Below are positions 8,393 through 45,173 of a stretch of DNA of 64,000 nt, piece by piece. Source of the stretch: Parcubacteria group bacterium Greene0714_7. GTDB taxonomy: Bacteria; Patescibacteriota; Minisyncoccia; Phycocordibacterales; Phycocordibacteraceae. The first letter of the stretch is position 1. The number at the start of each line of letters is the position of its first letter. The stretch covers positions 192,252 through 256,251 of the forward strand of contig VMHB01000001.1 in the NCBI GenBank assembly GCA_007378985.1. Direction: 5' to 3'. The notes under the pieces are model-generated. The model saw only the letters and a list, made by a program, of their open reading frames with translations. It had not been told where the DNA came from and searched no databases. A program made the position numbers and the translations under genes.

Positions 8393-8500
8393 ATGATGAG
8401 CGGATTTAAACTTAAATCAGAATATAGTCCTGCAGGGGACCCCAGTACCAGACGCTCTTGCGTCGGTACGGGGCAGGTCATCCTTCATATAAAAACATGA
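8393..8500 (+). CDS. Upstream ORF (35 codons) whose first 16 codons mimic the uvrB N-terminus. Its TGA stop overlaps the uvrB ATG (ATGA).
   Basis: uORF MMSGFKLKSEYSPAGD… vs UvrB MSGFNLKSDYKPAGD…: 9 synonymous and 3 non-synonymous codon differences. It contains the conserved 38-nt element. Confidence 0.45.
   Translation: MMSGFKLKSEYSPAGDPSTRRSCVGTGQVILHIKT
8440..8477 (+). repeat. Conserved 38-nt start-proximal element (CCCCAGT-N21-ACGGGGCAGG), copy 1 of 3
   Basis: ccccagtaccagacgctcttgcgtcggtacggggcagg. Strong hairpin potential (CCCAGTACC/GGTACGGG outer, GACGC/GCGTC inner). Confidence 0.65.
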
Positions 8501-10581
8501 GTGGTTTTAATCTCAAATCTGACTACAAACCAGCTGGCGATCAACCGCGAGCCATCGAGGCGTTGGTTAAGGGTGTGAAAGACGGGGAGTCACATCAGAC
8601 ACTTCTTGGGGTTACCGGCTCGGGTAAAACATTCACTGTTGCAAATGTTATACAGCAGATTCAAAAGCCAACCTTAGTCATTGCACACAATAAAACACTC
8701 GCAGCGCAACTTACACAAGAGTATCGAGAATTTTTCCCTGAAAATGCGGTGCACTATTTTGTTTCTTACTACGACTACTATCAGCCAGAGGCATACATGC
8801 CGATGACTGATACCTACATTGAAAAAGAGGCTCAAATTAACGCTGAAATTGATCGTTTGCGCCATGCTTCTACTCAGGCACTTTTAACTCGGAGTGATGT
8901 CATTATTGTGGCATCCGTTTCCGCTATCTACGGTCTTGGTTCTCCTGAGCAATATAAAAGAGTCCATAGGAATATTAGGGTGGGTGAAAAATTCGAGCGT
9001 GCAGAATTTGTACGTGCTCTCATTGGGCTCCAGTTTGAGCGTACAAACGCCGACTTAACTCCGGGGACATTTAGAGCGGTAGGTGCGAACGTTGAGCTTA
9101 TGCCAGTCAATGAAGTAGCGGTGTACCGTATTCATCCAGAGCAAGGAAGAATCGCACACATTAGTAAGCTCAATGCTGTTTCCCGGGCTCTTGTTGACGA
9201 GCCAAAAGAATTTTTTCTTTTTCCTGCAAAACATTATGTTACCGATGAAGCTGATAGAGGAAGGGCGGTAGCAGATATACAAAAAGAACTTGATGTTCGT
9301 TTGGTCCAGCTTGAAGCTGAAGGAAAAATGCTGGAGGCAGAACGCCTGCGGAGGCGTACTCGCTACGACCTCGCCCTCATTCGTGAAATTGGATACTGCA
9401 ACGGCATTGAAAATTATTCTCGCCACTTTGATGGACGCAAAGCTGGAGAGCCTCCGTATACGCTTCTTTCGTATTTTCCACACAAAGCAGATGGAACGCC
9501 AGATTTCCTTACGGTCATTGATGAGTCACACGTCACTATTCCTCAGCTCCGTGCCATGTATGCAGGAGACCAGTCACGAAAAAAGATGCTGGTTGATTAC
9601 GGGTTTCGTTTGCCATCTGCTGCGGACAATCGCCCTTTAACATTTGCGGAATTTGAGAAAAGAGTTGGAGAAAAAGTGTATACCAGTGCAACGCCAGGAG
9701 TGTATGAGTTTGAGCATTCGGGTACACCAATCGAGCAAGTCATTCGACCTACGGGACTCATTGACCCTGAAATAATAATTCGCCCCGTAACGGGCACCAG
9801 TTCATCGAGTAGTCAGGTAGTTGATTTCATACAGGAGACCGTCTCGGTAGTAAAAGGAGGAGGGCGAGTGCTTGTCACTACACTGACGAAGAAGATGGCG
9901 GAAGACTTGTCGGAATTCTTAAAAGAAAAAAATATAAAAGCTGAGTATATTCATAGTGATATTAAAACGATTGACCGCATTACTATTCTCACTGAATTTC
10001 GCAAAGGGACCTTTGATTGCTTGGTTGGTGTGAACCTACTTCGTGAAGGGCTCGACCTACCTGAAGTTGAGCTTGTGGGAATACTTGATGCCGATAAGGA
10101 GGGATTTCTTCGCTCCGATACATCACTCATTCAGACTATTGGTCGCGCAGCTCGAAATGTTAATGGTCGGGTTATTCTCTATGCCGATGGAATGACTGGC
10201 TCTATGGAGCGTGCCATTGGAGAGACTAATCGTAGGCGTGCGGTACAGCTTGCCTACAATACAAAGCACGGCATCACACCAAAAACCATTCATAAGAACA
10301 TTAAAGACATTACGGAAACACTGCAATCAGAGAGAGCTGCGGCTATTACTATGCTTTTGGCAGTTGATGAGGATCGTACGCATGATCCTAAAGCCTTGAA
10401 GGCTCTTATTAGCGAGAAACGCCAGCAAATGGAAGATGCGGTTGAGGTTCTTGATTTTGAGACTGCCGCACTGCTGCGAGATGAGGTCTATAAACTTGAA
10501 GAAAAACTACCCGTGCCGAAAAAGCCTAAGCGTAAACCCAAATGGCCCAAGAAAGGTATGGTAATTGATTTAGAAGATTAG
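8497..10581 (+). CDS. uvrB: Excinuclease ABC subunit B
   Basis: Helicase motifs (GVTGSGKTF), the beta-hairpin region and a C-terminal UVR domain, with a Lys/Pro-rich tail. The six-frame ORF starts at 8458 in the same frame, but homology begins at MSGFNL (8497). Confidence 0.9.
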   Translation: MSGFNLKSDYKPAGDQPRAIEALVKGVKDGESHQTLLGVTGSGKTFTVANVIQQIQKPTLVIAHNKTLAAQLTQEYREFFPENAVHYFVSYYDYYQPEAYMPMTDTYIEKEAQINAEIDRLRHASTQALLTRSDVIIVASVSAIYGLGSPEQYKRVHRNIRVGEKFERAEFVRALIGLQFERTNADLTPGTFRAVGANVELMPVNEVAVYRIHPEQGRIAHISKLNAVSRALVDEPKEFFLFPAKHYVTDEADRGRAVADIQKELDVRLVQLEAEGKMLEAERLRRRTRYDLALIREIGYCNGIENYSRHFDGRKAGEPPYTLLSYFPHKADGTPDFLTVIDESHVTIPQLRAMYAGDQSRKKMLVDYGFRLPSAADNRPLTFAEFEKRVGEKVYTSATPGVYEFEHSGTPIEQVIRPTGLIDPEIIIRPVTGTSSSSSQVVDFIQETVSVVKGGGRVLVTTLTKKMAEDLSEFLKEKNIKAEYIHSDIKTIDRITILTEFRKGTFDCLVGVNLLREGLDLPEVELVGILDADKEGFLRSDTSLIQTIGRAARNVNGRVILYADGMTGSMERAIGETNRRRAVQLAYNTKHGITPKTIHKNIKDITETLQSERAAAITMLLAVDEDRTHDPKALKALISEKRQQMEDAVEVLDFETAALLRDEVYKLEEKLPVPKKPKRKPKWPKKGMVIDLED

Positions 10582-16007: not shown

Positions 16008-16080
16008 TAAGTGTATGTGGACCGTGCCGGTTTCGAACCGGCTGCCTCCGCATTGCAAATGCGGCGCTCTACCAATTGAG
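16008..16080 (-). tRNA. tRNA-Ala (anticodon UGC)
   Basis: Reverse complement GGGCCGTTAGCTCAATTGGTAGAGCGCCGCATTTGCAATGCGGAGGCAGCCGGTTCGAAACCGGCACGGTCCA folds as a cloverleaf with a G3:U70 pair and anticodon loop TTTGCAA. Confidence 0.85.
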
Positions 16081-16084
16081 CTAA

Positions 16085-16335
16085 CGGCCCTCACTGAGAA
16101 AGAGAGTATCATACAACTCTTTGTATGTACTCTTTTCGAAGAGGGCGGCCGAAAACTTTGTTTACAGGCCCTCGACGAGAAAGAGGATAGCATACGAGAT
16201 TCTCATATGTACCTCTCTCAATGAAGAAGAGAATACCATGAGTGGGGAATCTATGCACCTCTCAGATAGGTCGAATATATAGGTTGAGGGTCATATTTCG
16301 ACATAAGGGCCTCGGTTGTTATACTAGCCGTATAC
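16085..16335. repeat. Degenerate ~55-nt hairpin-containing tandem repeats between tRNA-Ala and pdxS
   Basis: Repeated units gagaaagag(a/g)gtat(c/a)…catac…tct…tgtac…tct…, each with internal inverted repeats. Upstream of pdxS there is also ggtcgaatatata…catatttcgac. Confidence 0.4.
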
Positions 16336-23702: not shown

Positions 23703-23775
23703 GGGCGGTTAGCTCAGTTGGTAGAGCGTTCCCTTCACACGGGAGAGGTCACAGGTTCGAATCCTGTACCGCCCA
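23703..23775 (+). tRNA. tRNA-Val (anticodon CAC)
   Basis: GGGCGGTTAGCTCAGTTGGTAGAGCGTTCCCTTCACACGGGAGAGGTCACAGGTTCGAATCCTGTACCGCCCA is a canonical cloverleaf with anticodon loop TTCACAC. Confidence 0.85.
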
Positions 23776-23798
23776 CACATGATTTATTATTGTTAGTT

Positions 23799-23869
23799 CG
23801 GGGCGGAGTATGCCGGTAGTACATACGATTCGGGTTCGTATAGACCGAGTTCGATTCTCGGCGCCCCGA
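23799..23869 (+). tRNA. tRNA-Pro (anticodon CGG)
   Basis: CGGGGCG acceptor (C1:G72, A73, typical of bacterial tRNA-Pro), a 3-bp D-stem, anticodon arm TACGA-TTCGGGT-TCGTA (CGG, G37) and T-arm CCGAG-TTCGATT-CTCGG. Confidence 0.7.
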
Positions 23870-24004
23870 CTGAACAAAGTGAAGGAGGAAGAACAGACCG
23901 ACTGCTCGGTCTGTGTCCGGAATCGAAAGTCGGAGTCATGCCGTTAGGCAGACGAGACCGGGTAGAAACCACTTAGCGAGTCCTCGAGCGGAGTTCGTTG
24001 ACGC

Positions 24005-24023
24005 CGATTCTCGGCGCCCCGAC
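24005..24023 (+). repeat. 19-nt direct repeat of the tRNA-Pro 3' end (cgattctcggcgccccgac), ~135 bp downstream of the tRNA
   Basis: Exact copy of 23852-23870. This att-site-like arrangement is typical of integrase-mediated insertion/excision at a tRNA 3' end. Confidence 0.6.
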
Positions 24024-24126
24024 CATAGAGGTCAAATATATTTTTTATTCATGGGCCTATAAGCAAAGCTTTTAGGCTCCTCTCTCGAAAAAAGTAGACA
24101 TACATGCCATACTTTCTTTCTCGTTC

Positions 24127-24197
24127 GGGCCTATAGTCTAGTGGTACGACGCTACATTCGCATTGTAGAGGCGCGAGTTCGATTCTCGCTAGGTCCA
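24127..24197 (+). tRNA. tRNA-Ala (anticodon CGC)
   Basis: GGGCCTATAGTCTAGTGGTACGACGCTACATTCGCATTGTAGAGGCGCGAGTTCGATTCTCGCTAGGTCCA with G3:U70, anticodon loop TTCGCAT and a standard T-arm. Confidence 0.8.
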
Positions 24198-28714: not shown

Positions 28715-30274
28715 ATGGACATCAGCATCATTGAACGCCTCAAGAAAGAAATTGAATCCTTTGCACCAAATGCAAAACCAACTGAAACGGGCATCGTGCG
28801 CAAGGTGGGTGATGGCATTGTTGAGATAGAAGGTTTGGATGAAGTGTCGATGGCCGAGATGGTTCGTTTTGACGAGGGTTCGGTATCTGATGTGAAAGCA
28901 ACTATTGCACATGAGGATACACTCTATGGTGTTGTATTGAACTTGGAAGAGAATACCGTAAAGGCAATCATCCTCGGGGATTCGTCACGCATTAAAGAGG
29001 GAATGCTTGTGCATCGCACAAAGAAACTTCTTTCAATTCCTGTAGGAGACGCGGTTATTGGTCGCATTGTTGATGCACTCGGAGTTCCTATAGATGGGAA
29101 AGGGCCAATCAAAGCAGATGCCACAAGTCCTATTGAGCGCGAAGCGTACGGCGTTATCGATAGAGGCCCAGTAAATGTACCAATGCACACCGGCATTAAA
29201 GCAATTGATTCATTAATTCCTATTGGTCGTGGACAGCGTGAACTCATCATTGGCGACAGAGGCACTGGTAAAACAACAGTTGCTATCGATGCAATTTTGA
29301 ACCAACTTAATGAACCAAAGGAGACACGCCCTATTTGTGTATATGTTGCTATTGGTCAAAAAGAATCAAAGACTGCCCGCATTGCAGCGATGCTTAAAGA
29401 GCGCGGTGCGATGGATTACACCATTGTGGTATCGGCTCCAGCATCAGCTTCAGCAGCATTCCAATTCTTGGCACCGTACGCTGGCGTAACTTTGGGTGAG
29501 TATTTCATGGACAAAGGCAGAGATGTTTTGGTTATCTACGATGATCTTTCCAAGCAAGCTGTTGCGTACCGACAACTTTCGCTCCTCCTTCGTCGTCCCC
29601 CTGGACGCGAGGCATATCCTGGAGACATTTTCTATCTCCACTCAAGACTTTTGGAACGAGCCGCAAAACTTTCTCCTGAAAAAGGAGGAGGCTCTCTTAC
29701 GGCGCTTCCTATTATTGAAACGCAAGAAGGCGACATCTCGGCGTACATTCCAACCAATGTTATTTCCATTACTGACGGTCAAATGTTCCTCGAGGCTGAT
29801 CTCTTCAATAAAGGAACACGCCCTGCAATCAATGTAGGTATTTCAGTTTCTCGTGTCGGTTCTGCCGCTCAAACAAAAGCTATGAAGAAGGTGTCGGGAC
29901 GCATCAAGCTCGACCTCGCACAGTTCCGTGAACTTGAAGCATTCATGCAATTCTCACAAGATCTCGATGCTGAAACGAAGAAGACCATTGATGGAGGTCG
30001 TCGTCTTTCGGCAATTCTGAACCAAAACAAAAACGCCCCAATTCCATTTGAGCGACAGGTTGTTGTTATGTATGCAGTCACTAACGGCTTCTTCGATACA
30101 TTTGGTGCTGAACAGATGAGTGAAATAGAAGCAAAGTTCCTCGCGTATTTGGATAGGGAAGCTAAAGGCGTTCTTGACGCTATTCGTACATCAAAAGAAA
30201 TAGCTAAAGACACGGAGGAGAAACTTAAGACTGCCATTCAGTCGTTTGTTTCAACTGTAGATGTGAAAAGCTAA
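28715..30274 (+). CDS. atpA: F0F1 ATP synthase subunit alpha
   Basis: Walker A GDRGTGKT and overall highly conserved alpha sequence. Confidence 0.95.
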   Translation: MDISIIERLKKEIESFAPNAKPTETGIVRKVGDGIVEIEGLDEVSMAEMVRFDEGSVSDVKATIAHEDTLYGVVLNLEENTVKAIILGDSSRIKEGMLVHRTKKLLSIPVGDAVIGRIVDALGVPIDGKGPIKADATSPIEREAYGVIDRGPVNVPMHTGIKAIDSLIPIGRGQRELIIGDRGTGKTTVAIDAILNQLNEPKETRPICVYVAIGQKESKTARIAAMLKERGAMDYTIVVSAPASASAAFQFLAPYAGVTLGEYFMDKGRDVLVIYDDLSKQAVAYRQLSLLLRRPPGREAYPGDIFYLHSRLLERAAKLSPEKGGGSLTALPIIETQEGDISAYIPTNVISITDGQMFLEADLFNKGTRPAINVGISVSRVGSAAQTKAMKKVSGRIKLDLAQFRELEAFMQFSQDLDAETKKTIDGGRRLSAILNQNKNAPIPFERQVVVMYAVTNGFFDTFGAEQMSEIEAKFLAYLDREAKGVLDAIRTSKEIAKDTEEKLKTAIQSFVSTVDVKS

Positions 30275-30308
30275 AACCTGATACCTGAAAGTTGACACCT
30301 AAAACCCC

Positions 30309-30413
30309 ATGTCTCTCAAAGATATCAAACTCAAAATAAAATCTGTTGACCCCAGTCGTAGAGCTGGAACAGCTCACAACGGGGCAGGCCGTACTCACAT
30401 ACTATGTCGTTAA
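30309..30413 (+). CDS. Upstream ORF (34 codons) whose first 14 codons are a synonymously recoded copy of the atpG N-terminus. Its stop lies 3 codons inside atpG.
   Basis: MSLKDIKLKIKSVD (identical peptide to AtpG 1-14, 9/42 nt differ) then PSRRAGTAHNGAGRTHILCR. Contains the conserved element. Confidence 0.45.
   Translation: MSLKDIKLKIKSVDPSRRAGTAHNGAGRTHILCR
30350..30388 (+). repeat. Conserved 39-nt start-proximal element (CCCCAGT-N22-ACGGGGCAGG), copy 2 of 3
   Basis: ccccagtcgtagagctggaacagctcacaacggggcagg with an internal GAGCTG/CAGCTC hairpin. Confidence 0.65.
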
Positions 30414-31321
30414 AGGATATTAAATTGAAAATAAAGTCCGTGGACAGAACACGGAAAGTTACGAAGGCAATGGAATCTGTTTCTGCGGTGAAGATGCGCA
30501 AAAGTCAGATACGCGCAATTACCTCGAGGCCCTACGCTTCTTCCGCGCTCTCCATTCTGGAGCGCATGAGTGTTTCTCTCGCGTCTCTTAAACATCCGTT
30601 AACTGTTGTGCGACCTGTCAAAAAAGCAGCAATAGTTGTGGTTACCAGCGACAAGGGACTCTGCGGCATATTAAATGCAGCTGTTGTGAAATCTGCCTAC
30701 ACTCTTGCAGAATCATTGGAACTCCCTCGTGAAGCAATTTCTATCTACGCTTTTGGACGCAAAGGGGCTGAGTTTTTTGATCGCCGTGGATATCAAATTT
30801 TAGGAAAGTTTGAAAACGTTTCTGACGATGTTTCTGTTGCTGACCTAGCTCTTGTCTCAAATGATATCGCCCGTGCATTTCTAAATAAAGAATTTGACCG
30901 TGTTGATGTTGTATATACCAACTTTAAATCTACGTTTGAGCAAAGTGCTATTGCCCATAAAGTACTTCCACTCTCCATTGAAACAGTATCTGAAATAGTG
31001 AGCGGTATTGTGCCAGTAAAAGGAAAGTTTGCTGTGGTAGAGCGAGTGAAAGGTCCTGCATCATACACGGCAGAGCCATCTACTGAAGTTGTCGTAGACG
31101 CCCTCATTCCACGCCTTGTCAGTGTACTTTTCTTCCACGCACTTTTGGAGTCAAAAGCGTCAGAGCATTCAGCTCGTATGGTTGCCATGAAGAATGCGTC
31201 AGATAAATCTCGAGATCTTTCTAAGCTACTGACAAGAAAATACAACAAAGCTCGTCAGGCGCTTATTACCAGAGAAGTTTCCGAGATTGTTGGAGGTATC
31301 GAGGCCATGGCAACGAGTTAG
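30404..31321 (+). CDS. atpG: F0F1 ATP synthase subunit gamma
   Basis: Gamma N- and C-terminal coiled-coil helices (…ARMVAMKNASD…ITREVSEIVGG). Confidence 0.9.
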   Translation: MSLKDIKLKIKSVDRTRKVTKAMESVSAVKMRKSQIRAITSRPYASSALSILERMSVSLASLKHPLTVVRPVKKAAIVVVTSDKGLCGILNAAVVKSAYTLAESLELPREAISIYAFGRKGAEFFDRRGYQILGKFENVSDDVSVADLALVSNDIARAFLNKEFDRVDVVYTNFKSTFEQSAIAHKVLPLSIETVSEIVSGIVPVKGKFAVVERVKGPASYTAEPSTEVVVDALIPRLVSVLFFHALLESKASEHSARMVAMKNASDKSRDLSKLLTRKYNKARQALITREVSEIVGGIEAMATS

Positions 31322-31354
31322 AAAGAATAGAAGAATTAAGGTAAAATCAAAAAC

Positions 31355-31530
31355 ATGACACTTCTAGCTGAAAGAGTACATAGAAAAAATTCTGACAAAG
31401 GATTGAAAACAGTGGTGGAAACTGACGGAGTTCGAAAAAGTTCGTGGCGTCTTACTGAGGCTGAGCAGGCTATCTTAAGGGTATTAAATGGCGAGGCAAC
31501 TGTAGGGCCTGTTTGGGATATAAAATAAAA
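31355..31530 (+). CDS. Hypothetical 58-aa protein inserted between atpG and atpD
   Basis: ORF MTLLAERVHRKNSDKGLKTVVETDGVRKSSWRLTEAEQAILRVLNGEATVGPVWDIK. Not in the supplied ORF track, which has a 60-aa cutoff. Confidence 0.3.
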
Positions 31531-31724: not shown

Positions 31725-31770
31725 AAGAAATTAATATATTAAAAGTTGCAACCTATAACCTGACACCTAA

Positions 31771-33156
<1,386 letters not shown>

Positions 33157-33316
33157 CTTCCTATGGCTTTACTCAATCAGGCAGAAAGTTTGCGGGCTCC
33201 TCAAAAGCACACGGGGGGTGGTAACTGGCTAGAGGCATATCTAAATATGTTGTTTAAGGTGTCAGGACCGATGATGGATTTTCTCTTACTAACTACTCCA
33301 AAAAAGAATTAGGCTT

Positions 33317-34078: not shown

Positions 34079-37000
34079 TTAGAGAGGGGAAGAAGGGTTC
34101 CAGAATTGTTTCCCCGGGTTTCGGTAGACGAGGATTGGTGTGAGTACGAGTGTCAGAATCATTGCAAATGAGAGACCAAACATAATAGCGAAGGCAAGAG
34201 GTCCCCATAGTGCAGATGCGCCAGCGAGAGGAATCATACCAATGACGGTAGTGATGGTAGTGAGAACAATTGGTCGAAGCCTGCTTGCTGAACCGTCAAC
34301 AACTACCTCCTCCAGTGTCTTTCCTTCGGGATTCTTCATGCGGATTATGATTGAGTCCACAAGAATTATGGCGTGGTTGATTATGACACCAGCAAGTGCA
34401 ATGACACCTAAGAGAGATGAGAACGAGAGCGGTTGTCCCGTAAGTGCAAGGCCACCTAATACTCCAATGAGAGAAAGAATGACGAGCATGAGGAGATAGA
34501 ACGAATAGCGGAATGAATTGAATTCGAGTACTAGAACTGCAAGCATAAGCACCAAACCAGCGAGGAAGGCAATTCCCATTTCGCTGAATGACTTATTTAC
34601 ATCTTCCGTTTCGCCTCCGATTTTCATTACGACACCAGTAGGCAAAGTTTCTTTTTCAATAGCTTTTTTGAATGCGGTAGATACCTCAACAGCTGTTGCT
34701 CCTCCTGCAGTGTAGCTAGAGACAGTAGCAATGTTTTTTTGGTCTTGGCGCCTAATAACTGCGTTTGATTTTTCAATAGAAGGGGAGAGAATTGAGCCTA
34801 ACAGTACTGTGCCTCGAGGCGTTTTTACAGAGAGGTTTAAGAGCGTATTGATATCTGCTTTTGTAGTATCTTCCGGTTCTTGCCAAGAAGGGTTGAGGTT
34901 TGTGGAGACAAGAACGTCGATGTCCTCGGTGTCATTTTTTATAGTGGTTGCAACAACACCTGAGACTGCAGTTCGGAGAATGCTTGCTACCTGTAGAGGA
35001 GAGAGCCCCACTTGTGATGCCTTGGCGCGGTCAATAGTGAGGGCAAACTGTGTTCCATCGTCCTTAATAGATGTAGCTACTTCAGCAGTACCTTTAATGG
35101 AGCGCATTATTTTTTCGCCTGTAGCTACTGAGCGCTCTAAGTCATCAAGATTGTCTCCAGAGAAGGTTATAAGAACTGGGGCGCCTGAAGGTGGTCCGCC
35201 AGCTGGCTCGAATGCATTTACAGAAAATTCATGGAAAACAGAAACTTTGTTTCTGAGCTCTTCAGTAATTTGTGTTGAAGTTTGTTTTCGATCTTCTTTC
35301 GGTACAAGCTTGATGGTGATGTTTGCGTATTTGGCACCGCTGGATTGATTTTGACTTAATCCTGATGAGGCACCAACAGTTGTTACAAATGAGCTGATAC
35401 GCGAATCGTTATAAAGAAGCTCTTCTACACCTCGGGTGGCAAGATCAGTCACTTCAAGTGGTGTGCCTTGCTTTGCTTCTACTTCAAGATATACATAATC
35501 GGCATCCTCTGATGGGAAAAAGAGCACTTTCACAATGCCTGACACTGGTAAGAGAATTGCTACGACGAGAGCGAGACCCAATCCAAGCATGAATCTATTT
35601 TGGAATTTTCTATTTTTCAAAACTCCCGTAAGAAAGCTTCGGTACCATACTTGCGCTTTGTTGTTCCACTCTTCTTGTATGATTTGAAGTTTGCCAGTGC
35701 TTCGCTTGGTGAGATTTATTGCAATTAATGGCACTAAACCGAGTGCTACAAAAATCGAAGCAATAAGAACGGTAATGATTGTAAAGGGGATTGATTGAAT
35801 GTATTGACCTACAATACCTGAAATAAAGAAGAGTGGCGCAAACATAACGACAGTCGTCATAGTGCCTGCGGTTAGGGGCCTGGCATATTCGCGAATCGCT
35901 TCTTTTGCTGCACGAATTGGATCCCCAAATTTCTGATAGCGCGTGTGAATTGCTTCCGTCACCACGATGCCAGAATCAACAAGAATGCCGATTGCAAGAA
36001 TGAGTGCAAAGAGGGAGACGAAATTTATGGTGTTACCTGAAGCGTTCAGTCCTATGAATGCAATAACGAAAGAAAGAGGAATTGAAAGTCCTGCAACGAG
36101 AGATTCTCGCCAGCCAATTGTTAACACAAGACAGATCATGACGAGAGCGATTGTTTCTAAGCCAACTTTAGTAAGTTCGCTCAAACTTTTCTGAACTTCT
36201 TCTCCAAGGTCAATCGAGATATCGGTAGTAATACCCAAAAGCATTGTTCCCGAGAGCGAGTTTAGTTTTTCTTTTGCTGCTGATGCTGTTTTGAAAATAT
36301 TTCCTCCAGCTTTTTTATATACTGAAAGGGTAATTGCAGGCTCTGCTGGAGCGCCTTTAGTAGAAACGCGAGATACACTTTTTGCTTTCTCAAGACCGTT
36401 AACGATGTCCGCTACATCGCGAAGATAAATTGGGTTGCCATCTAAATTCCCGATACTTGTTTGCGCGAGTTCTTCTGGATCATTCAAATCGCCCTTAAAG
36501 GCAACAGAATACTCAATGGCATCGACAGTTATAGTGCCAACAGGTAAAGAACTATTGGACGCACTTAGGGCAGATACTACGTCCGTAAGTGATAGTCCGT
36601 ATGATTGTAAAGCTTCTTTGCGAACTATTATGTTCGCTTCTCGTTCGCGGGTACCGCTGATTTCCACTCTGGACACACCAGATACTTGTTCAAGTTCATC
36701 CTGCACATCTTTGGCAAGACGAGTAAATTCTGTTGGTGGAAGTCCGCCAGAAAGAGACACTATAAAAATTGGTTGATCGTTCGCTGTGATGCGGAGTACT
36801 ACAGGTTCGTCTGCATCTTTAGGAAGTTTTGGTTTTGCACGGTCAACCGCATCTTTAACATCCTGAATTGATTTATCAATATTTGCCGATGCTTCAAATT
36901 CAGCACTCACTACAGAGACTCCCTCGCGAGAAGAGGAAGTGAGTTTGTGAAGGTTCTCAACAGTGCCAACCTCTTTCTCTATTTCCTTTGTTATGAGTTT

Positions 37001-42617: not shown

Positions 42618-42653
42618 CTTTCAGCTTGGAGTTTTCAGTCGTATAATCCCTAC

Positions 42654-42755
42654 ATGGGAAGTTACGACCGCCCCAGTACCACCGGGCTCCGCATGGCTAC
42701 GGGGCAGGAAGTGGTTCGATATATAATCGTGTTTTTGACATTTTCAGTACCCTAA
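42654..42755 (+). CDS. Upstream ORF (33 codons) beginning MGSYDR, a recoded copy of the LeuS N-terminus MQSYDH. Its stop is 6 nt before the leuS ATG.
   Basis: Ser encoded AGT vs TCA (a codon-family switch) and Tyr-Asp identical. Contains the conserved element. Confidence 0.4.
   Translation: MGSYDRPSTTGLRMATGQEVVRYIIVFLTFSVP
42671..42708 (+). repeat. Conserved 38-nt start-proximal element (CCCCAGT-N21-ACGGGGCAGG), copy 3 of 3
   Basis: ccccagtaccaccgggctccgcatggctacggggcagg. Its first 10 nt are identical to copy 1. Confidence 0.65.
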
Positions 42756-42761
42756 ATCTGC

Positions 42762-45173
42762 ATGCAATCATACGACCACAAAAAAATAGAGAAAAAATGG
42801 CGAAAGCTTTGGGAAGAGTCAGGTATTTACAAGACTAGTGAAAATTCATCAAAGCCAAAGCACTATGTTCTGGACATGTTTCCGTACCCATCGGCGTTAG
42901 GTCTTCACACTGGTCATGTTGAAGGGTATGCGGCGACCGATATTTACAGTCGTTTTAAACGAATGAAGGGGTTCAGTGTGCTCCATCCTATGGGATGGGA
43001 TGCGTTCGGTCTCCCTGCAGAAAACTATGCAATAAAAACAAATACGCCACCTCGAGAAACTACAAATAAGGCAATTGATAACTTCCGCAATCAAATCCAA
43101 CGCTTAGGCCTTTCGTATGACTGGTCACGAGAAATAGGCACTCACAATCCTGACTATTATAAGTGGACACAGTGGTTGTTTTTGTTCTTGTTTGAAAATG
43201 GTCTTGCGGAAAAACGCATGGGTAAGGTGAATTGGTGTCCCACCGACCAAACAGTGCTCGCCAATGAACAAACAGTGAGTGAGAGTGGAGAAAAGGGTGT
43301 GTGTGTTCGTTGCGGTACAAAAATAATTCAACGCGAACTTTCACAGTGGTTTTTCAAAATTACTGATTTTGCTGATGTATTAATTGATGATTTGAATGGT
43401 GTTGATTGGCCAGAGTCTACAAAAATAAATCAACGAAATTGGATTGGTAGAAAAGAAGGAGTCATTGTTACTCATAAAGTGAAAGGGCTGGATGTATCGC
43501 TCGACACGTTTAGTGCCTATCCTGCATGGCTTTTTGCGGATACCTATATGGTACTTGCTCCTGAGCACCCAATAGTAAAAACTCTTGTGGAAGGTACTGA
43601 AGTACAAAAGAGTGTTGAGGATTTTGTGAAGTGTATGCAGGAGGTCACAACGATTGATCGCACAAACGCAACAACGGAGAAAGAGGGTATTTTTACAGGA
43701 CGCTTCGCTATTGACTCTCTCTCCGGTAAAGAATTTCCTATTTGGATTGCTAACTTTGCTTTGATGGATTTTGGAACAGGTATTATTCGTTGCTCTTCAC
43801 ACGATATCCGCGACCTTACATTTGCTAAAAAATACGGAATCCCTTTGAGTGAGGTAGTCGAGAGAGAAAGTCCTGATATGCCCGTTGATGCCCATGCTAA
43901 TAAGGGTGTTTTGAAAGACTCGGGTCCGTTCACTGGTCGCACTATTAATAATGAGTTAATTCAAGAAATAATTGCGTGGATAGAAAGTAATGGATATGGG
44001 CATGCACAGACTACATACCGTCTTCGTGATTGGCTTATTTCTCGTCAACGATATTGGGGGGCGCCTATTCCAGTAGTGTATGACCCAGAAGGGAAAGCGC
44101 ATGGAGTTCCCAAAGAGCACTTGCCGTGGCTCCTTCCTGAAGATGTAGAGTATTTACCGAAGGGAACTTCACCGCTCGGAACCTCAAAGGAACTTTTGGA
44201 ACGAACAGAGAAAATATTTGGGAAAGGGTGGAAGCCAGAGATCGACACTATGGACACTTTCGTGTGTTCTTCGTGGTATTTTCTTCGATTTGCCGATCCA
44301 CATAATGAGATTGAGTTTGCGTCGAAAGAAGTAGTAAAAAAATGGCTTCCCGTTGACCTCTACATGGGAGGTGCTGAACATACAGTTTTGCATCTTATGT
44401 ACGCCCGCTTTATTACCAAGGCCCTGCAGAAGTTTGGATACATAGAGTTTGGTGAGCCATTCTCCAAGCTCCGTCACCAAGGGATGATTCTTGCTGAAGA
44501 TGGAACCAAGATGTCTAAGTCGAAAGGTAATGTCATAAACCCTGACGAAATTAGTGAACTCTACGGTGCGGACACGCTACGAATTTATGAAATGTTCATG
44601 GGTCCTCTTGAAGCTATGAAGCCATGGAGCACCAAAAATATTATTGGCTCACGGAGATTTTTGGAGCGTGTCTGGAGGGTACAAGAAAAGGTGAGTCAAG
44701 GTGCAACTTTGAGTGCAAGCGCTGATGCCACTCTACAGCAAACAATTAAAAAAGTAGCTGAAGATATCGAGCTCCTTAGTTTAAACACGGCAGTGAGTCA
44801 GATGATGATTTGTGTTAATGCTTTTGAAAAAGAAGAAAAAATACCTGCTGAAAGCTATGAGAGCATGCTGTTGGTACTTGCCCCGTTTGCACCTCATATG
44901 ACAGAAGAATTATGGGAAACTTTGGGTCATACTTCTTCAATTCATCAAGAAAATTGGCCAGTGTTTGATGAAAGTAAGCTCGAAAAAAATGAAGTAGTAA
45001 TGGCTGTTCAGGTTGGTGGGAAAGTAAAGGGCACCATTGTCATTCCTCGCGGAGCTACAGAAGAAGAAGTAATTGAGTTAGTACGAAAAGACGTCAAACT
45101 TGGTGGGGTAGTTCCTCAAAACCCATCCCGCATGATATTCGTTCCCAATAGGGTCGTTAACTTCATACCCTAG
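42762..45173 (+). CDS. leuS: Leucyl-tRNA synthetase
   Basis: HIGH region (LGLHTGHVEGY), KMSKS and the CP1 editing and anticodon-binding domains. 803 aa. Confidence 0.95.
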   Translation: MQSYDHKKIEKKWRKLWEESGIYKTSENSSKPKHYVLDMFPYPSALGLHTGHVEGYAATDIYSRFKRMKGFSVLHPMGWDAFGLPAENYAIKTNTPPRETTNKAIDNFRNQIQRLGLSYDWSREIGTHNPDYYKWTQWLFLFLFENGLAEKRMGKVNWCPTDQTVLANEQTVSESGEKGVCVRCGTKIIQRELSQWFFKITDFADVLIDDLNGVDWPESTKINQRNWIGRKEGVIVTHKVKGLDVSLDTFSAYPAWLFADTYMVLAPEHPIVKTLVEGTEVQKSVEDFVKCMQEVTTIDRTNATTEKEGIFTGRFAIDSLSGKEFPIWIANFALMDFGTGIIRCSSHDIRDLTFAKKYGIPLSEVVERESPDMPVDAHANKGVLKDSGPFTGRTINNELIQEIIAWIESNGYGHAQTTYRLRDWLISRQRYWGAPIPVVYDPEGKAHGVPKEHLPWLLPEDVEYLPKGTSPLGTSKELLERTEKIFGKGWKPEIDTMDTFVCSSWYFLRFADPHNEIEFASKEVVKKWLPVDLYMGGAEHTVLHLMYARFITKALQKFGYIEFGEPFSKLRHQGMILAEDGTKMSKSKGNVINPDEISELYGADTLRIYEMFMGPLEAMKPWSTKNIIGSRRFLERVWRVQEKVSQGATLSASADATLQQTIKKVAEDIELLSLNTAVSQMMICVNAFEKEEKIPAESYESMLLVLAPFAPHMTEELWETLGHTSSIHQENWPVFDESKLEKNEVVMAVQVGGKVKGTIVIPRGATEEEVIELVRKDVKLGGVVPQNPSRMIFVPNRVVNFIP

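Follow-up and report, generated by a model that had tools for sequence, protein, structure and literature searches.

A short hairpin element within duplicated gene starts of a Parcubacteria group bacterium

Results

Three genes in the 64-kb stretch of DNA analysed here (henceforth referred to as the window), part of the genome of the Candidate Phyla Radiation (CPR) member Parcubacteria group bacterium Greene0714_7, are each preceded by a short open reading frame (ORF) that resembles the start of the gene itself and that contains a palindromic sequence of 38 or 39 nucleotides (nt), henceforth referred to as element E. The genes are uvrB, atpG and leuS, and translation of the upstream ORFs, which comprise 35, 34 and 33 codons, respectively, gives N-termini that resemble those of UvrB, AtpG and LeuS. 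The + strand of the window contains exactly three matches to the pattern CCCAGT-N15-30-ACGGGGCAGG (8441-8477, 30351-30388 and 42672-42708), the - strand contains none, and 100 shuffles of the window yielded none. A covariance model built from 33 CPR copies of E in other genomes matched only the same three places, at E-values between 1e-10 and 1e-12 (8440-8477, 30350-30388 and 42671-42708), and all three copies fold into a hairpin of the form CCCC-A(bulge)-GU...AC-GGGG, followed by an unpaired CAGG, with free energies of -18 to -24 kcal/mol. Pattern, fold and ORF translation thereby agree with a previous sequence-only reading of this DNA, which had described three genes with CCCCAGT-N21/22-ACGGGGCAGG behind a copy of their N-terminus. 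The peptide matches given there (MMSGFKLKSEYSPAGD versus MSGFNLKSDYKPAGD at uvrB, 14 identical amino acids at atpG and MGSYD versus MQSYD at leuS) were recovered, as were the reading of E in different frames at different loci and the stop of the upstream ORF at, or not more than 9 nt from, the real start codon (+1 nt at uvrB, +7 nt at atpG and -9 nt at leuS).

At uvrB, the original gene start is found behind its native leader as a 5' stub (F, 8393-8439; all features described here lie on the + strand) that is broken after nt 47 by copy 1 of E (8440-8477, 38 nt), which is identified by the pattern, by a covariance model score of 51.6 bits and by a fold of -24.3 kcal/mol (z = -4.5). Next come a stub continuation of about 7 nt (TCATCCT, where the sister genome L002 natively has TCAGCCT) and a 12-nt spacer (together 8478-8496); the spacer may be a diverged copy of the leader, the likeness being weak and seen by inspection. 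The stub ORF (8393-8500, 35 codons) opens at the original start, reads through E and terminates in an ATGA that it shares with the true start of the intact uvrB gene (8497-10581, 694 amino acids), the first 18 codons of which (8497-8550) form a diverged 5' patch. At atpG, the stub (F, 30309-30349) follows the native atpA-atpG intergenic leader, has 3/41 mismatches to the relatives L214 and L215 and is preceded by a leader motif common to these two and the window. Copy 2 of E (30350-30388, 39 nt; pattern, fold and covariance model) is followed by a stub continuation (30389-30403, 11/15 identical to L214) in which CCGTACTC equals the native sequence and the next 7 nt have decayed, and the stub ORF (30309-30413, 34 codons) ends 7 nt inside the true atpG ORF (30404-31321, 305 amino acids). 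The stub and the intact copy of atpG differ at 10/41 nt with no amino-acid change, which 0/200,000 random simulations matched, and every difference between the stub and the diverged patch that opens the intact gene (codons 1-18, 30404-30457) is synonymous. At leuS, the stub (F, 42654-42670, MGSYD.., 2/17 mismatches to the sister L213) lies behind the native leader (42626-42653) and abuts copy 3 of E (42671-42708, 38 nt; pattern, fold and covariance model). Beyond E, a decayed remainder of the stub (42709-42734) is weakly recognisable by inspection, and AAGTGG within it may correspond to native positions +36 to +41, a likewise weak likeness that would imply an internal deletion. A diverged second copy of the leader and promoter follows (42735-42761, TTGACATTTTCAGTACCCTAAATCTGC versus native TTGGAGTTTTCAGTCGTATAATCCCTAC at 42626-42653); the stop codon of the stub ORF (42654-42755, 33 codons) starts 9 nt before the true start, leaving a gap of 6 nt, and intact leuS (42762-45173, 803 amino acids) opens with a diverged 5' patch (42762-42847).

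The three loci have the layout [a..J][E][J+1..b][a*..b*][rest of gene], in which a target segment a..b has undergone partial tandem duplication; its left edge, a, falls 0-30 nt upstream of the ATG and its right edge, b, 7-20 nt past E. Of the two copies, the first is a dead stub that contains E, and the second is intact and provides the real start and N-terminus of the protein. Two details of the sequence-only reading had to be revised accordingly: the upstream copy reaches past the element, gene sequence resuming for 7-15 nt beyond E (matches of 13/17, 10/14 and 14/18 in other genomes), and the start of the duplication does not always coincide with the ATG, since about 27 nt of leader are also duplicated at leuS and possibly about 12 nt at uvrB. 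The Asp GAC codon that was said to close the upstream copy is present in its letters but is not a codon-level feature, because its final C is the first base of E. The junction between stub and E is defined at the nucleotide level, mostly as an A directly followed by CCCCAGT, the target ending in GA and E beginning with C, and in other genomes (for example at gatB, rnhA and an epimerase gene) it is out of codon phase.

In the closest relatives of this genome (94-98% identical), uvrB, atpG and leuS all have empty sites, and the native gene start is the sequence of the upstream copy in the window. The covariance model, run over 147 kb of syntenic DNA from sister genomes, found no E. At uvrB, the 300 nt upstream of the stub are 95% identical to L002 (UvrB 97% identical), the leader is identical, and L002 then reads ATGGTGAGCGGATTTAAACTTAAATCAGAATATAGTTCTGCAGGAGAT directly followed by CAGCCT, in other words the upstream copy of the window continued without a break by the rest of the gene, with 3/47 nt differing between the stub and this functional start and with neither an element nor a second copy of the gene start at the locus. 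The uvrB loci of L003 and L004 also lack E and are empty, and a metagenome scan for further uvrB relatives yielded only distant loci (≤ 67% identity), none of which has E. At atpG, E is absent from L209-L212 and L214-L216, and the native start in L214 and L215 (97%) equals the window's upstream copy, including, in L214, the 8 nt beyond E. At leuS, the sister L213 (94%; 96% identical over the 300 nt upstream) lacks E and opens the gene with ATGGGTAGTTACGACCA (MGSYDH..), again the sequence of the upstream copy. Because the sister loci are empty and their native start equals the upstream copy, the E module is an insertion polymorphism. To judge from these alignments, the 'mimic' upstream ORF is the lineage's own interrupted gene start, and its likeness to the downstream protein is one of descent rather than of selection on the upstream peptide.

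The differences between the two copies are nearly all synonymous, as had been pointed out before, and 0/200,000 random trials reproduce this for atpG and for typA of the genome L110. The selection on an upstream peptide that had been read into this pattern does not follow, since the stub is the ordinary gene start of sister genomes; rather, the identity of the stub with the sister allele implies that constraint acted while each copy served as the real gene start in some lineage. We next considered the intact copies. The uvrB patch has 18/51 mismatches to L002 (35%) against 8/300 in the following 300 nt (2.7%; Fisher p = 3e-11), and is closer to the more distant relative L003 (8/51 mismatches) than to L002. 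Similarly, the leuS patch has 28/86 mismatches to L213 (33%) against 10/300 afterwards (3.3%; p = 9e-13), its amino-acid changes falling at variable residues. The atpG patch differs from L214 at 13/54 positions against 43/300 afterwards, an excess that is not significant against the noisier background there (p = 0.10). From these comparisons we infer that the first 54-86 nt of the intact copies are a patch of other ancestry. An origin of the second copy from RNA was rejected because the leuS second copy contains promoter sequence, and integration of a small circle by a Campbell-type event was rejected because the foreign tract that it predicts, ending before the junction, is not seen.

An identical atpG copy of E and its surrounding cassette occur in L217-L220, which comprise a metagenome-assembled genome (MAG) at NCBI from another project and three Logan assemblies of different runs. 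Over positions 29300-31400, comparison of the window with L217, L214 and L209 reveals a fine mosaic of blocks with 100% and blocks with 82-90% identity; against L217 the blocks measure 50 to about 350 nt (in 50-nt windows), yet the atpG cassette is essentially identical. This mosaic indicates, as read from the alignments, that short-tract recombination is very frequent in the population. The same data bear on whether the duplications are real: palindromes and strain mixtures can confuse de Bruijn assemblers, and the two copies do look like two alleles, so that strain-variant bubbles around a palindrome might have been serialised into a false tandem duplication. Given the identical cassette in assemblies of separate projects and runs, the presence of the uvrB protein and locus on three contigs, and the same architecture in at least 10 other MAGs from unrelated studies, we regard such an artefact as extremely improbable.

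A scan of one genome per species yielded at least 124 pattern matches at at least 120 loci, and 91 of the 124 matches listed (120 loci, species-representative genomes) form a stable hairpin. E can be described as a palindromic element of 36-41 nt with the form CCCC-A-GU...stem...AC-GGGG-CAGG(C). Hairpin-forming copies occur in many classes of Patescibacteria and in MAGs of Desulfobacterota, Cloacimonadota, Neomarinimicrobiota and Planctomycetota, and several genomes hold more than one; matches in GC-rich cultured genera such as Streptomyces fold poorly and look like chance, and none of four viral-contig matches forms the hairpin, so these too were attributed to chance. Among the CPR copies, little or no variation is seen in the foot, in the bulged A5 and A11 and in the 3' tail. 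The upper stem covaries: eight pairs are altered on both sides, and 15 pairs are 92.6% paired as compared with 34-43% in slid controls, in a set pre-filtered for foot and stability. The base before E is A in 54% of copies, and no further insertion motif was detected. Clustering of the ORFs within 3 kb of the 91 hairpin copies returned only target genes as recurrent (translational GTPases) and no associated enzyme; TnpA was not found beside E copies, and the ORFs between the paired E copies in L106 are not transposase-like. With Rfam 15, only tRNAs scored above the gathering threshold in the window and nothing meaningful appeared at E ≤ 10 around the uvrB locus; BLAST searches with two E consensus sequences gave only partial chance matches to plasmids and phages, and the literature searched contained nothing that describes E or its architecture, only general papers on REP and on IS200/IS605. 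By these searches of Rfam, of plasmid and phage collections and of the literature, E is a previously undescribed hairpin family of the kind of REP sequences and MITEs (miniature inverted-repeat transposable elements).

The combination of E with a 5' stub recurs elsewhere in the CPR, at rplX, typA, uvrA, gatB, rnhA, an epimerase gene and a tRNA-Leu gene. At rplX, two genomes have E at the same site with different, compensated stems, at typA three different sites are occupied, and at tRNA-Leu the acceptor stem of the stub differs from that of the intact tRNA. Other copies are plain insertions, or are intergenic, antisense or located within proteins. Young, near-identical duplications occur in non-coding or antisense contexts (a 31-nt unit in L088; 46/46 identical in L079), and plain insertions of E in tRNA-like sequences in L028 and L079. 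In L012 (- strand, 599; a DnaG/primase-like gene) and L016 (+ strand, 3145), E lies in frame within ORFs of 1722 and 1368 nt from stop to stop, and since these frames are unbroken, E can evidently ride in a protein as an insertion of 13-14 amino acids. Duplications of N-termini that lack E were not found in about 660 kb, the other matches there being only internal repeats of repetitive proteins.

Non-CPR copies of E are found among short tandem repeats and are flanked by direct repeats of 6-9 nt. In L019, L023, L032, L034, L058, L064, L094, L113 and L124, for example, E lies inside degenerate repeats such as CACGGAT, CAAAGCT, AATATCCAA and TGAAGAA, which may be products of repeated local duplication beside the hairpin. 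Further observations concern the surroundings of individual copies. In L028 (- strand, 4661) and L079 (+ strand, 410), E occupies the D-loop or T-loop of truncated tRNA-like units that adjoin intact tRNA genes, and L028 has a series of mini tRNA-like repeats (ggcggaattggtagacgc...ttcaccccgcac). The four tRNA genes of the window (23703-24197 and 16018-16090), three of which are clustered, do not contain E. In L017 (- strand), E is followed by a 78-nt spacer in which what seem to be pieces of another E lie in both orientations (..GGGGCCTGCCC..CCCCAGTCAGC..), which suggests nested or decayed insertions.

We next asked how the genes downstream of E could be expressed. None of 36 gene starts listed in the window has a Shine-Dalgarno-like sequence, and many or most have a TATAAT- or TATACT-like -10 box 5-8 nt before the ATG, a spacing that suggests that the mRNAs are mostly leaderless or nearly so. 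In 12/12 stub architectures, from this and other genomes, the stub ORF is open through E and its stop lies between -20 and +10 nt from the true start, with ATGA overlaps at uvrB and in L068; a frame-randomised null gives a probability of about 1e-4 for this clustering, in a distance window that was set post hoc. These figures support the translational coupling proposed before and suggest that coupling is a property selected among surviving insertions. Scans with promoter and terminator consensus sequences, which covered uvrB and leuS, flagged nothing there, including no terminator-like site at E, and no T-run follows E. A hairpin that sequesters a Shine-Dalgarno sequence was rejected, as the distance from E to the ATG varies from 7 to 78 nt, and E was likewise rejected as a bacterial SECIS: many copies follow a TGA, but their contexts are intergenic and of low complexity.

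The open stub ORFs that end at the true start in 12/12 cases, together with a peptide likeness kept despite nucleotide divergence, are what a leader-peptide or N-terminal-mimic module would look like, in which peptide and hairpin sense or titrate a factor; this was the favoured interpretation of the sequence-only reading. We find it very unlikely, and the empty sites largely refute it: the module is missing in its entirety from all three loci of sisters of 94-98% identity, and their ordinary start is what forms the stub here (3/47, 3/41 and 2/17 nt differences), a likeness by descent. Furthermore, the frame of E differs between loci, the part of the stub beyond E decays, nothing terminator-like accompanies E, and E also resides in tRNA genes, antisense and intergenic DNA and, in frame, within proteins. 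The case that had been made against an insertion scar fails twice over, because the leader is partly duplicated at leuS and because different orthologous alleles explain the synonymous divergence. Still less credible is a programmed translational bypass or an RNA-level removal of the insert, by which the protein would be made from the upstream ATG and E with the second copy would be skipped. A GC-rich hairpin does stand straight after the junction, with matching codons (GAC/GAT) on either side, and at uvrB taking out E alone sets the stub in frame with the main ORF; however, the frame is not restored at atpG or leuS (E of 38, 39 and 38 nt; ATG-to-ATG offsets of 104, 95 and 108 nt), the downstream genes start from an ATG of their own and encode the conserved N-terminus in full, the codon phase is not kept at junctions in other genomes, and Rfam gave no ribozyme or intron match.

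The duplicated starts also touch on gene annotation. In the NCBI record of this genome and in a close relative (P0129 and P0130), AtpG is a protein of 293 amino acids that begins at an internal GTG (MDRTRK...), likely because the stub ORF overlaps the true start. Another short annotated AtpG, P0163, proved to have a miscalled start with an ordinary empty site, and for P0139, an atpG homologue annotated from 'MDRTRK', the locus was not located. The UvrB homologues P0018, P0037, P0079, P0086, P0117 and P0120 have annotated N-terminal extensions that are unrelated to the true N-terminus or weakly repeat it (for example MNFGMNFSLNTKKGRISFVSVFNLKSEY), and these may be read-through of upstream stubs in other genomes. 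Finally, the motif TGACACCTAAAA precedes both the atpG stub (30293-30304) and atpD (31761-31772), and with one mismatch it also occurs at 33253-33264 (- strand) and 34402-34413, that is, four matches where 0.35 are expected; it may be an operon-internal signal.

Discussion

The interpretation that we favour, with a probability of roughly 0.7, is that a hairpin element has inserted into the gene start and that the start region has been tandemly duplicated, the second copy rescuing the gene. A miniature mobile element rescued by re-creation of the N-terminus had been the third candidate of the sequence-only reading, and it appears essentially right, as it fits the evidence. E would be non-autonomous and would insert within the original 5' end of a gene. 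Only insertions near enough to the start for the duplicated unit to include it would leave the gene functional, and insertions would pile up at the 5' ends of conserved genes because selection keeps only the duplications that include the start. The stub would keep the native promoter and probably a leaderless start and would be translated through E, and its termination at or beside the true ATG would let ribosomes re-initiate on the real gene. Identical tandem copies would recombine and thereby delete E, so that the survivors would be those with diverged copies. For the duplication itself, the leading guesses are hairpin-induced template switching or flap retention.

Several considerations weigh against this interpretation. 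There is no target-site duplication of fixed length, and the position of E, which lies within the first copy and not at the boundary of the two, fits no standard product of transposition. No transposase or other enzyme was found beside any copy, and mobility is deduced from distribution and polymorphism only. The three copies in the window differ strongly in their upper stems, contrary to recent transposition within the genome, and covariation of the stems could stem from arm-to-arm templated repair instead of selection. No donor sequence was found for the patch, and its left boundary lacks an obvious homology anchor for ordinary homologous recombination. In addition, the extra divergence of the atpG patch is not significant on its own (p = 0.10), and the range of distances used in the coupling statistic was set once the data had been seen.

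Alternatively, E alone would not transpose, and the mobile unit would be the whole insert-and-rescue cassette (E, its short continuation and the diverged start), passing from strain to strain by homologous recombination into the orthologous gene. Under this alternative, which we hold to be unlikely, the real gene would depend on translation of the stub through the hairpin, and the recoded copy would block both deletion between repeats and imprecise excision. Three copies of E as unlike as those in the window look as if they had arrived separately, the divergence is limited to the duplicated segment, and essentially the same atpG cassette is found in the window and in L217-L220, whereas its flanks alternate between 100% and 82-90% identity. 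On the other hand, both flanks of E carry the allele of the recipient lineage, including the lineage-specific variants CCGTACTC at atpG and CCT at uvrB, and since these flanks match the native allele, E seems to have entered native DNA and not to have come in together with the patch. Plain insertions and near-identical duplications in situ also exist (L012, L016, L028, L079 and L088), and no homing nuclease or guide was identified. It is similarly doubtful that such cassettes act, by analogy, as a selfish, protein-free counterpart of home-and-rescue drives that spreads between related strains of Patescibacteria through short-patch homologous recombination. Synthetic home-and-rescue and cleave-and-rescue drives share the formal layout, in which an essential gene is interrupted and a recoded copy of the lost part restores function and cannot recombine away; they are, however, engineered constructs, and no nuclease or guide is known for E.

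Returning to an inserting hairpin with a rescuing duplication, E can be compared with known families. Like MITEs, it has terminal inverted repeats, in that the arms of the hairpin are the repeats (the 3' CAGG(C) tail being unpartnered), and it is multicopy and polymorphic for insertion, the 64 kb here containing 3 copies and other genomes several each. A fixed target-site duplication is lacking: none is seen at the plain insertions in L012, L016, L028 and L079, and the duplications at CPR copies measure 20-110 nt with E inside the first copy. REP/RAYT sequences and REPINs are, like E, short (20-40 nt), imperfect, multicopy and non-autonomous palindromes with a conserved foot, unpaired bases and a single-stranded extension; REPs, however, are extragenic and species-specific, whereas E has the same 17-nt foot across several phyla, lies inside coding sequence and tRNA genes and is tied to target duplications of 20-110 nt, and no RAYT gene was seen in the 64 kb here or in 8-kb loci elsewhere. 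The ends of IS200/IS605 elements and of the derivatives of these that lack ORFs (PATEs) share with E the lack of a fixed target duplication and a short single-stranded tail 3' of the hairpin, and, like E, the ends of IS608 fold into a hairpin whose foot is CCCC...GGGG and that contains an extrahelical base. PATEs, in contrast, have two distinct hairpins (the left and right ends, LE and RE) and insert 3' of a 4-5 nt motif, where E has a single hairpin and a weak preference for A (54%).

Selfish palindromes that are tolerated in coding genes are known as Rickettsia palindromic elements (RPEs) and mitochondrial GC clusters or 'byps', which the in-frame copies of E in L012 and L016 resemble; RPEs, however, measure 100-150 bp and are translated in frame, and byps are bypassed, whereas E at gene starts is neutralised by the duplicated start. 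Target genes have their ends replaced by some islands and phages (with dusA-, icd- or tRNA-targeting integrases), which likewise leave a stub and a synonymously diverged replacement end, but they are kilobase-scale and carry their own integrase for one fixed target, as opposed to about 55-90 nt of non-coding DNA at many genes here. Two further candidates were discarded. Integron attC sites are at least about 55 nt long and have R''/R' core sites (RYYYAAC ... GTTRRRY); E, as CCCCAGT...ACGGGGCAGG of 36-41 nt, has the wrong core sites and is too short. In the case of a diversity-generating retroelement, the differences between the copies span all four bases and are synonymous rather than adenine-specific. 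By analogy, E would function most like REP sequences, IS200/IS605-type hairpins and Rickettsia palindromic elements, with an outcome like that of gene-end-replacing islands, and it is set apart from each of these families because it is not extragenic, has no LE/RE pair, makes no fixed duplication and has no partner enzyme that was found.

Asymmetric hairpins with bulges and a 3' tail are typical of folded single strands that are recognised by proteins, as in IS608, REP and attC. E is, by this analogy, probably recognised as a folded single strand by an enzyme acting in trans, as REP sequences are by RAYT or as IS200/IS605 ends are. The preservation of the 17-nt foot across Patescibacteria, Desulfobacterota, Cloacimonadota and Planctomycetota would point to a widely shared enzyme of this kind, and few known mobile-like DNA elements would be as small as E, at 38 nt. 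Insertion of E into essential genes can be survived, in that the duplication of the start rescues the gene and stop-start coupling would keep it expressed in the absence of Shine-Dalgarno sequences. For the study of these genomes, the cassettes mislead gene callers, as with the internal GTG of AtpG, and produce seeming 'uORFs', which should not be taken for regulatory ones, and the sharply bounded patches may serve as convenient markers of short-tract recombination in uncultivated bacteria.

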